In this document: piece by piece, positions 22,164 to 60,830 of the stretch
Position numbering within the stretch: the stretch's first letter is position 1
Layout of the letters: each line of letters opens with the position of its first letter
Assembly (NCBI RefSeq): GCF_053078305.1
Contig: NZ_CP166879.1
Strand: one strand, 5' to 3'
DNA: 64,000 nucleotides
The notes under the pieces: generated by a model
Database searches by the model: none
Seen by the model: the letters and a program-made list of their open reading frames with translations, nothing else
What the model was told of the DNA's origin: nothing
Made by a program: the position numbers and the translations under genes

Positions 22164-22262
<99 letters not shown>

Positions 22263-22305
22263 AATTTGGCGTTGCCGTCAGTCTCAGTTAATCAGGTTAC
22301 GACGA

Positions 22306-45038: not shown

Positions 45039-47578
<2,540 letters not shown>

Positions 47579-47639
47579 CCTGCTTTTTTATGATTCTGGC
47601 ATAACCTGGCGATAGCGTACCGCAAAACAGCGATAATTT

Positions 47640-47790
47640 TATAATGGTGGCATGATAAGACGCGACAGACATCGATAGTTTTGTTTTATAACGTAGGCAT
47701 GATAAGACGCGATAGCGTCGCATCAGGCAATTCAGTGCAGACACTGGCACACCCGACCGGATGCGACGTGAGCGCCACATCCGGCCTGGT
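47640..47790. repeat. REP-type extragenic repeats
   Basis: Two direct copies of ggcatgataagacgcga plus gcgtcgcatcaggc and ccggatgcgacg...catccggcc palindromes. Confidence 0.6.
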
Positions 47791-47805
47791 GTTAATGATT
47801 CCCTT

Positions 47806-47988
47806 TCAAACTTCTTCCACAGGACGACTCCCCTCCCCCGGAACAAGCTCGGTTTCATGAAAAGCTTCCCGCTTGACCCCGTAACCGTCATACCAACGAC
47901 ACTCAACCATACCGTTGGAGTATCCAGTGACAATCATCCGCGGGCCGCCCTCTTTAACCGTAACTTCCTCACTAACCATAAAGCTCAT
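47806..47988 (-). CDS. yodC: small protein YodC
   Basis: 60 aa ORF; synteny. Confidence 0.85.
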   Translation of the reverse strand: MSFMVSEEVTVKEGGPRMIVTGYSNGMVECRWYDGYGVKREAFHETELVPGEGSRPVEEV

Positions 47989-48066
47989 ACTCGCCTCCTT
48001 TTTTCGAGTGAAACTTGTTCACCTTAGTTGAAGATGGCGAATTTTGCATAATAGCCTGTGCGAGTA

Positions 48067-60744: not shown

Positions 60745-60830
60745 GACAAAGTACGCGTTATCCCTGCCGGATGTGGCGCGAGCGCCCTATCCGGCCTACG
60801 CAGATCACATCAGGTTATGTTTCGTTTGTC
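60745..60830. repeat. REP element
   Basis: gccggatgtggcgcgagcgccctatccggcctacg palindromic unit. Confidence 0.6.

Follow-up and report, generated by a model that had tools for sequence, protein, structure and literature searches.

The window, a stretch of 64,000 nt (64 kb) of the Escherichia coli chromosome, carries a cluster of REP sequences between two genes encoded in tandem on its minus strand, yodC and dgcQ. The gene yodC (47806-47988, minus strand) encodes 60 amino acids and ends at a TGA stop codon at 47808-47806, and dgcQ (45869-47563, minus strand) begins with a GTG start codon at 47563. The REP cluster is located 80-230 nt upstream of dgcQ, which is read on the same strand as yodC. 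We used positions 47540-47810 as a megablast query against a set of 5,426 complete E. coli genomes, and 5,363 of these contained a match, at one site each, between annotated dgcQ and yodC. The names of the two genes, which an earlier note had assigned from the bare sequence, agree with RefSeq records of identical sequence, where both are annotated, one on each side of the cluster.

We first describe the direct repeat. The 17-mer GGCATGATAAGACGCGA has two exact sites on the plus strand of the whole 64-kb window, 47649-47665 (copy 1) and 47696-47712 (copy 2), and no further site in the window at up to three mismatches. With a chance expectation of 0.19 and two or more matches in none of 100 shuffled sequences, the two copies that the earlier note pointed out are real. 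Their spacing, given there as about 49, is 47 nt from start to start, with a gap of 30 nt between the copies. Extended to 32 nt, the two repeat copies (47637-47668 and 47684-47715) are 88% identical. Extended copy 2, TTTTATAACGTAGGCATGATAAGACGCGATAG (47684-47715, plus strand), consists of the outer flank and 5′ arm of a complete Z2 REP. The local alignment of the two copies had a score of 25, which was equalled in none of 2,000 shuffles. Tandem Repeats Finder gave no report for 47400-48000 even at a score of 30, as an identity of ~86% combined with a 5-nt indel lies below its threshold. The period is 47 rather than 42 nt because a GTTTT is duplicated in tandem at 47678-47687 (GTTTT GTTTT, plus strand); the common long allele of this locus has a single GTTTT.

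The complete Z2-type REP, GTAGGCATGATAAGACGCGATAGCGTCGCATCAGGC, occupies 47693-47728 on the plus strand. Its layout is GTAG-GCATGATAAGACGC-GATA-GCGTCGCATCAGGC, with GTAG at 47693-47696, two 14-nt arms and a 4-nt loop, and 33 of its 36 positions agree with a Z2 consensus derived from the naRNA4 model of Rfam with the CTAC tail added. The assignment is further based on alignment to naRNA4 and on the hairpin predicted by RNA folding. The 5′ arm is copy 2 of the direct repeat, and the 3′ arm is gcgtcgcatcaggc (47715-47728). The earlier note had counted two palindromes here, and both are present; however, gcgtcgcatcaggc, which it regarded as a separate flanking palindrome, is the 3′ arm of copy 2's own hairpin. 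The other one, ccggatgcgacg...catccggcc, forms a hairpin of its own from arms at 47749-47768 and 47773-47792. Read on the minus strand, in the sense of yodC, the Z2 element appears as an iREP ending in CTAC. Within its stem, GATAAGAC is paired with GTCGCATC, the canonical AA/GC two-base mismatch stays unpaired, and a locus-specific GCATG in place of the consensus GCCTG adds a non-canonical mismatch. The element thus combines an imperfect palindrome of ~35 nt following GTAG, the AA/GC mismatch and a close match to the consensus, as expected of a REP. GTAG and the stem mismatch are conserved REP features needed for TnpAREP binding (Ton-Hoang et al., PMC3333891).

This REP is distinct from the shorter Z1 element at 22234-22268 of the window. 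No match was obtained with a rigid REP consensus whose loop was set to 5 nt, since the loop of the REP at this locus is 4 nt long, and looser half-site patterns were successful. In megablast searches the REPs of this cluster matched only their own locus, being diverged copies with no second genomic match. For canonical REPs of the orthologous allele in strain E69, the matches listed numbered 31 (median) in each E. coli genome.

On the yodC side of the Z2 REP, and inverse to it, is a degenerate Y-type REP (47756-47790, minus strand), with a hairpin core at 47757-47784 and an extended stem formed by 47749-47768 and 47773-47792. It shares 26 of ~35 positions with the canonical Y REPs found at 22164-22197 and 60766-60799 of the same window, and the Y hairpin of naRNA4 aligns with it. 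On the minus strand the sequence is CCAG GCCGGATGTGGCG CTCA CGTCGCATCCGG, with CCAG in the position of GTAG; the AA/GC mismatch has given way to G-C and U-G pairs, which makes the hairpin nearly perfect. GTAG and AAGG are retained in the orthologous Y elements of E69 unit 2 and E. whittamii unit 2. Having lost both GTAG and the mismatch, the element at 47756-47790 is a degenerate Y REP. The Y consensus hairpin comprises 12 pairs, and across alleles and species we observed compensatory changes at three of them. Between the two REPs lies an S-like head-to-head linker of 27 nt (47729-47755). It is 13 nt longer than that of REP325 and includes a small hairpin of 5 bp at 47733-47746.

The Y hairpin of the window is also a chimera of allele types. 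The arm on the dgcQ side, CCCGACCGG, is of the long-allele type seen in MBT-5, and the arm on the yodC side, CCGGCCTGG, is of the short-allele type seen in strain 455. The stem of the window contains one mismatch and one G-U pair; the stems of MBT-5, strain 455 and the Escherichia lineage L005 are perfect and differ from one another. This pattern suggests a recombination breakpoint inside the hairpin, together with compensatory evolution or stem conversion templated by the palindrome.

Copy 1 of the direct repeat belongs to a relic of a second Z2 REP (unit B; 47637-47683, plus strand), of which the tail arm and the outer flank TTTTATAATG are left. The tail arm, GGTG GCATGATAAGACGCGAC (47645-47666), has GTAG mutated to GGTG and holds copy 1, and its partner arm is absent in every allele examined. 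This half-REP cannot form a hairpin and is probably inert. Unit B is the only REP remnant that K-12 possesses between yodC and dgcQ. The two copies of the direct repeat have the same orientation, are both Z2 tail arms, and are both flanked by ~10 nt of non-REP sequence, TTTTATAAYG. The GCATG variant is likewise common to both copies and to all Escherichia outgroups at this locus. The shared flank and the shared GCATG indicate that the copies are local paralogues and not separate insertions.

We examined how the locus varies within the species. The short, K-12-type allele was present in 4,132 of the 5,426 complete E. coli genomes (~76%) and the long allele in ~1,148-1,214 (~22%). Nearly all long alleles have a 42-nt period and correspond to MBT-5, without the extra 5 nt; 1118 genomes match the window at about 90%, a value that reflects the 5-nt gap. 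The subtype of the window, with the additional GTTTT, was found in 26 of the 5,426 genomes (at a level of at least 99%). Compared with the window, 59 nt are missing from the short allele, namely the complete Z2 REP and unit A, and a further 13 nt are missing from the apex of its Y hairpin, which leaves a hairpin of 14 bp. Its linker differs from that of the window at 5 of 27 positions, far above the divergence of the flanking genes (1.5-2%). The junction of the short allele is predicted, with one substitution, both by derivation from the long allele and by derivation from a single-unit form. An element that ~22% of E. coli genomes have in intact form is represented by a mere remnant in the K-12 reference.

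Several further differences between strains were seen around the locus. In strain 455, the first 724 nt of dgcQ are 93.5% identical to the window; the corresponding value for K-12 and MBT-5 is 98.5%. Over the same stretch the non-coli isolate Escherichia sp. MOD1-EC7003 is 95.2% identical to the window and hence about as distant as strain 455, which suggests a divergent or introgressed dgcQ allele in the latter. In strain AST205 (NZ_AP043614.1; positions 861-1661 of the locus L004), an IS1A copy lies ~60 nt upstream of dgcQ and is directly followed by a truncated hchA; as IS1A abuts the truncated gene, the interval from yodC to yedS has apparently been deleted by IS1. Elsewhere in the window, at 30714-30736, the yedL gene of K-12 (~630 bp, K-12 2010540-2011168) is absent. 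In K-12 this segment is flanked by imperfect direct repeats of ~20 nt, cataagaaatctctatt and cacaagaaacctctatt, of which the window keeps one.

We then compared the same locus in other species. One genome per species was taken, the locus was fetched with YodC as anchor, and the intergenic regions were compared and aligned with MAFFT. No REP was found between yodC and dgcQ in the Citrobacter and Salmonella genomes compared. A single Y-S-Z2 unit is present in E. albertii and in three other Escherichia lineages (L005, L006 and L008). Two tandem (Y-S-Z2-spacer) units are present in E. whittamii and in strain E69, with the apex of the second Z2 trimmed in each case.

To relate the window to these arrays, we compared diagnostic segments consisting of tail plus spacer, which are about 27 nt long and carry 2-5 differences. 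The segments grouped by position and not by genome. Copy A, the copy beside the intact Z2 REP, was scored on the common long allele MBT-5, that is, the copy A sequence of the window minus the extra 5 nt; in this form its identity to unit 1 was 93% for E. whittamii and 89% for E69. With its 5-nt insertion, the window's own copy A was 81% identical to unit 1 of each. Copy B, the relic, was 96% identical to unit 2 of E. whittamii, 89% to unit 2 of E69 and 93% to L005. Copies A and B were 81% identical to each other, and L006 looks like a hybrid of the two. The junction of the long allele, GATGTCTG, is that of spacer 1 in the two-unit arrays, and single-unit species have GATGTTTG at this point. 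Because each copy is nearer to its positional counterpart (93-96%) than to its paralogue (81%), the direct repeat is most likely the relic of a two-unit array that has lost ~90 nt. The diagnostic segments are short, and we therefore infer this two-unit history rather than consider it demonstrated.

Such a history would have proceeded in three steps. A whole BIME-2 unit of ~120-130 nt would have been duplicated in tandem in an ancestor. Subsequently, ~90 nt comprising Y2, linker 2 and the head arm of the second Z2 would have been lost, giving the common long allele with its 42-nt period. Finally, a slippage duplication of GTTTT would have produced the 47-nt period of the window. Within E. coli, none of the 5,426 genomes covered at least 80% of the E69 allele in megablast, and a blastn search of complete E. 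coli genomes for the junction between spacer and Y2 of a two-unit array gave no match. As no two-unit allele was found in E. coli, we infer the two-unit ancestor from other Escherichia lineages only.

The same absence of an intact two-unit allele from all 5,426 genomes speaks for a simpler origin, in which 42 nt of a single-unit BIME (the Z2 loop, tail arm and 3′ flank) were duplicated in tandem in one step within E. coli, with GTTTT added later. This scenario needs one event rather than two and is the simpler one if the outgroups are ignored; moreover, a single in-register insertion of 42-47 contiguous nt separates the long allele from the single-unit outgroups in the MAFFT alignment. However, the copies resemble their positional counterparts in E. 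whittamii and E69 (93-96%) more closely than they resemble each other (81%), and the junction GATGTCTG fits spacer 1 of the two-unit arrays, not the GATGTTTG of single-unit species. We consider a one-step duplication rather unlikely, and decay of a two-unit array appears to fit the outgroup sequences better. Insertion of two adjacent REPs in independent, RAYT/TnpAREP-mediated events would be in keeping with the view, given in PMC3333891, that REPs are mobilized by TnpAREP and that their positions differ between strains. Yet separate insertions would not account for the TTTTATAAYG flank and the locus-specific GCATG common to both copies, nor for their direct orientation, their regular period and a partner arm for copy 1 that is seen in no allele examined, and we regard this origin as very improbable.

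A reading of another kind would take the direct repeats as protein-binding sites, iteron-like or operators, serving the dgcQ promoter, with their likeness to REPs a coincidence. The repeats do lie upstream of dgcQ, on the promoter side, and a weak third copy can be proposed: positions 47586-47624 show weak similarity to the repeat unit (TTTTAT...GGCAT...GCGATAGCGT..CGCA), and the alignment of this stretch with copy 2 was equalled in only 4 of 2,000 shuffles in a post-hoc test. On the other hand, the repeated sequence is the REP arm itself, copy 2 is missing from 76% of E. coli genomes, and Citrobacter and Salmonella have no repeat copy at all. The third copy overlaps TATGCCAGRAT, which is conserved in these REP-less genera and is better explained as dgcQ core promoter or 5′ leader. 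A binding-site function is, in our judgement, hardly credible. We also considered 47586-47624 as a third, older REP relic and rejected this candidate, the stretch being conserved in the REP-less Citrobacter and Salmonella; it overlaps the element TGCCAGAAT and is probably not derived from a REP. The element TGCCAGAAT (minus strand, 47601-47593) is also present in Citrobacter and Salmonella, lies downstream of all REP material and is plausible as a putative extended -10 of dgcQ. If it is the -10 element, the indels described above leave the core promoter untouched.

Returning to the decayed BIME as the preferred explanation, we analyzed what its transcripts may form. In the minus-strand RNA 3′ of yodC, the Y, linker and Z2 hairpins are predicted to fold with an MFE of -60.6 kcal/mol (z -3.3), and none of 200 shuffled sequences gave a fold as stable. 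A simple terminator scan identified no intrinsic terminator at the window locus, and a simple promoter scan identified no minus-strand promoter between the REPs and dgcQ. In Citrobacter and Salmonella (L011-L016, about 1385-1420), an intrinsic terminator with a T-run, AAAACGCCCGG...CCGGGCGTTTT, follows directly after yodC; in Escherichia the Y REP occupies the position of this terminator and is not accompanied by a T-run terminator.

Among Y/Z2 BIME-2 elements that lie between tandem genes, REP325 has been studied best. REPs between tandem gene pairs are described as favouring upstream expression genome-wide (REP325 preprint, bioRxiv 10.64898/2026.03.23.713779). The RepRanger paper and that preprint name neither yodC nor dgcQ. 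By analogy with REP325, the cluster likely acts as a stabilizer of the yodC 3′ end and as a partial terminator. Transcripts reading through yodC would fold into the Y and Z2 hairpins, which would shield the yodC mRNA from 3′ exonucleases and would partly terminate transcription ahead of dgcQ, damping read-through. Where a REP lies no more than 15 nt from a stop codon, a rule of translational repression applies, for which this locus is borderline: the extended Y hairpin stem begins 13 nt from the yodC stop and the REP core ~20 nt from it.

If the hairpins act in this manner, the long/short dimorphism might constitute a natural regulatory switch, with the two alleles differing in yodC stability and in read-through into dgcQ. 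We consider this idea doubtful, with the odds well against it. Were it correct, DgcQ-dependent regulation of c-di-GMP and cellulose would be set differently in about one-fifth of E. coli lineages, with coding sequence and promoter unchanged and the alleles differing by a Y plus Z2 hairpin pair versus a single trimmed hairpin. If REPs serve as local terminator or stabilizer dials, as recently proposed, this dimorphic locus, with a diguanylate cyclase gene downstream of it, would offer a convenient natural test pair. For the most part, the importance of the locus is one of annotation, as REP/BIME sequences are the commonest repeats of E. coli and the cluster, though partly decayed, is typical of them. 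It also provides a worked case of BIME-2 evolution, in which a two-unit duplication, internal and apex deletions, and compensatory changes preserving the stem can be followed.

The RefSeq feature table of MG1655 contains no REP or repeat_region feature over a stretch of 49 kb. With REP features missing throughout this stretch, the unannotated state of the REP between yodC and dgcQ in K-12 is uninformative. Comparison with known families bore out the REP/BIME identity proposed in the earlier note: the Z2 REP agrees with its consensus at 33 of 36 positions, the Y REP agrees with the two canonical Y REPs of the window at 26 of ~35, and naRNA4 is aligned over the whole model. The direct-repeat arrangement, which the note had found conspicuous, is likewise real, yet its cause appears ordinary, namely the tail half and 3′ flank of a second Z2 REP from a decayed tandem BIME-2.

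Among the known systems, the closest is BIME-2, as exemplified by REP325 between yjdM and yjdN, which has the same head-to-head inverse Y and Z2 REPs across a linker. Like BIME-2, the cluster is extragenic and lies between two tandem genes on the same strand (PMC3333891; PMC4550694), and its copy number varies between lineages, from one unit to two units and decayed forms. Differences in BIME-2 copy number between E. coli strains have already been documented (PMC3333891). The REPs of the cluster are inverted and align to the REP325 unit model over its full length. BIME-2 elements, however, occur as multiple tandem copies; here, a single complete unit is accompanied by the tail half of a second Z2. 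Compared with REP325, the 27-nt linker of the cluster contains a 13-nt insertion, its Y lacks GTAG and the stem mismatch, and its Z2 has an extra mismatch. DNA gyrase is reported to bind and cleave within the BIME-2 linker, a result that is attributed to Espeli and Boccard in 1997.

The 77-nt Y-linker-Z2 unit of REP325 is naRNA4 (PMC4550694). The Rfam model of this RNA (RF02564) matched the minus strand of the window at 47786-47696 over model positions 1-77, with 42.5 bits and an E-value of 1.4e-6 (~1e-6). This score is below the gathering score of 59.5, and by the Rfam cut-off the locus is a structural relative of naRNA4 and not a member of the family.

BIME-1, or RIP/RIB (Y - L - Z1 plus an IHF site), also consists of an inverted REP pair in an intergenic 3′ region. 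In contrast to BIME-1, the second REP here is of the long Z2 type, the REPs stand head to head, and the linker is not of the L type. The IHF consensus WATCAANNNNTTR had no match in 47560-47810. Lacking an IHF consensus and having a Z element other than the short Z1, the cluster is BIME-2-like, and the BIME-1 reading was ruled out. The window does contain a canonical BIME-1 at 22164-22270, in which a Y REP and a Z1 REP are joined by an L-type linker carrying the near-IHF site aaattcaataaattg; synteny with K-12 (about 2,001,970) places it in the fliC 3′ UTR / fliX sRNA region. The canonical Y-type REP at 60766-60799 is a single element and, by synteny, lies between msrQ and zinT.

REPIN elements mobilized by RAYT (TnpAREP) share with the cluster the pairing of two inverted REP hairpins, which here form a REPIN-like doublet. 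TnpAREP in vitro needs GTAG and the stem mismatch; the Z2 REP of the window keeps both, and the Y REP has lost both. Unlike the REPIN/RAYT system, the element described here has been inherited vertically among Escherichia species at a single locus, where deletions are eroding it. Taken together, and with its history and function included, the cluster can with good confidence be read as one BIME-2-like unit, made up of a Y REP, a 27-nt linker and an inverted Z2 REP, beside the decayed remnant of a second unit. As nothing in it departs from known biology, both elements are, judged by their sequence, ordinary E. coli REP/BIME DNA of an already known kind.
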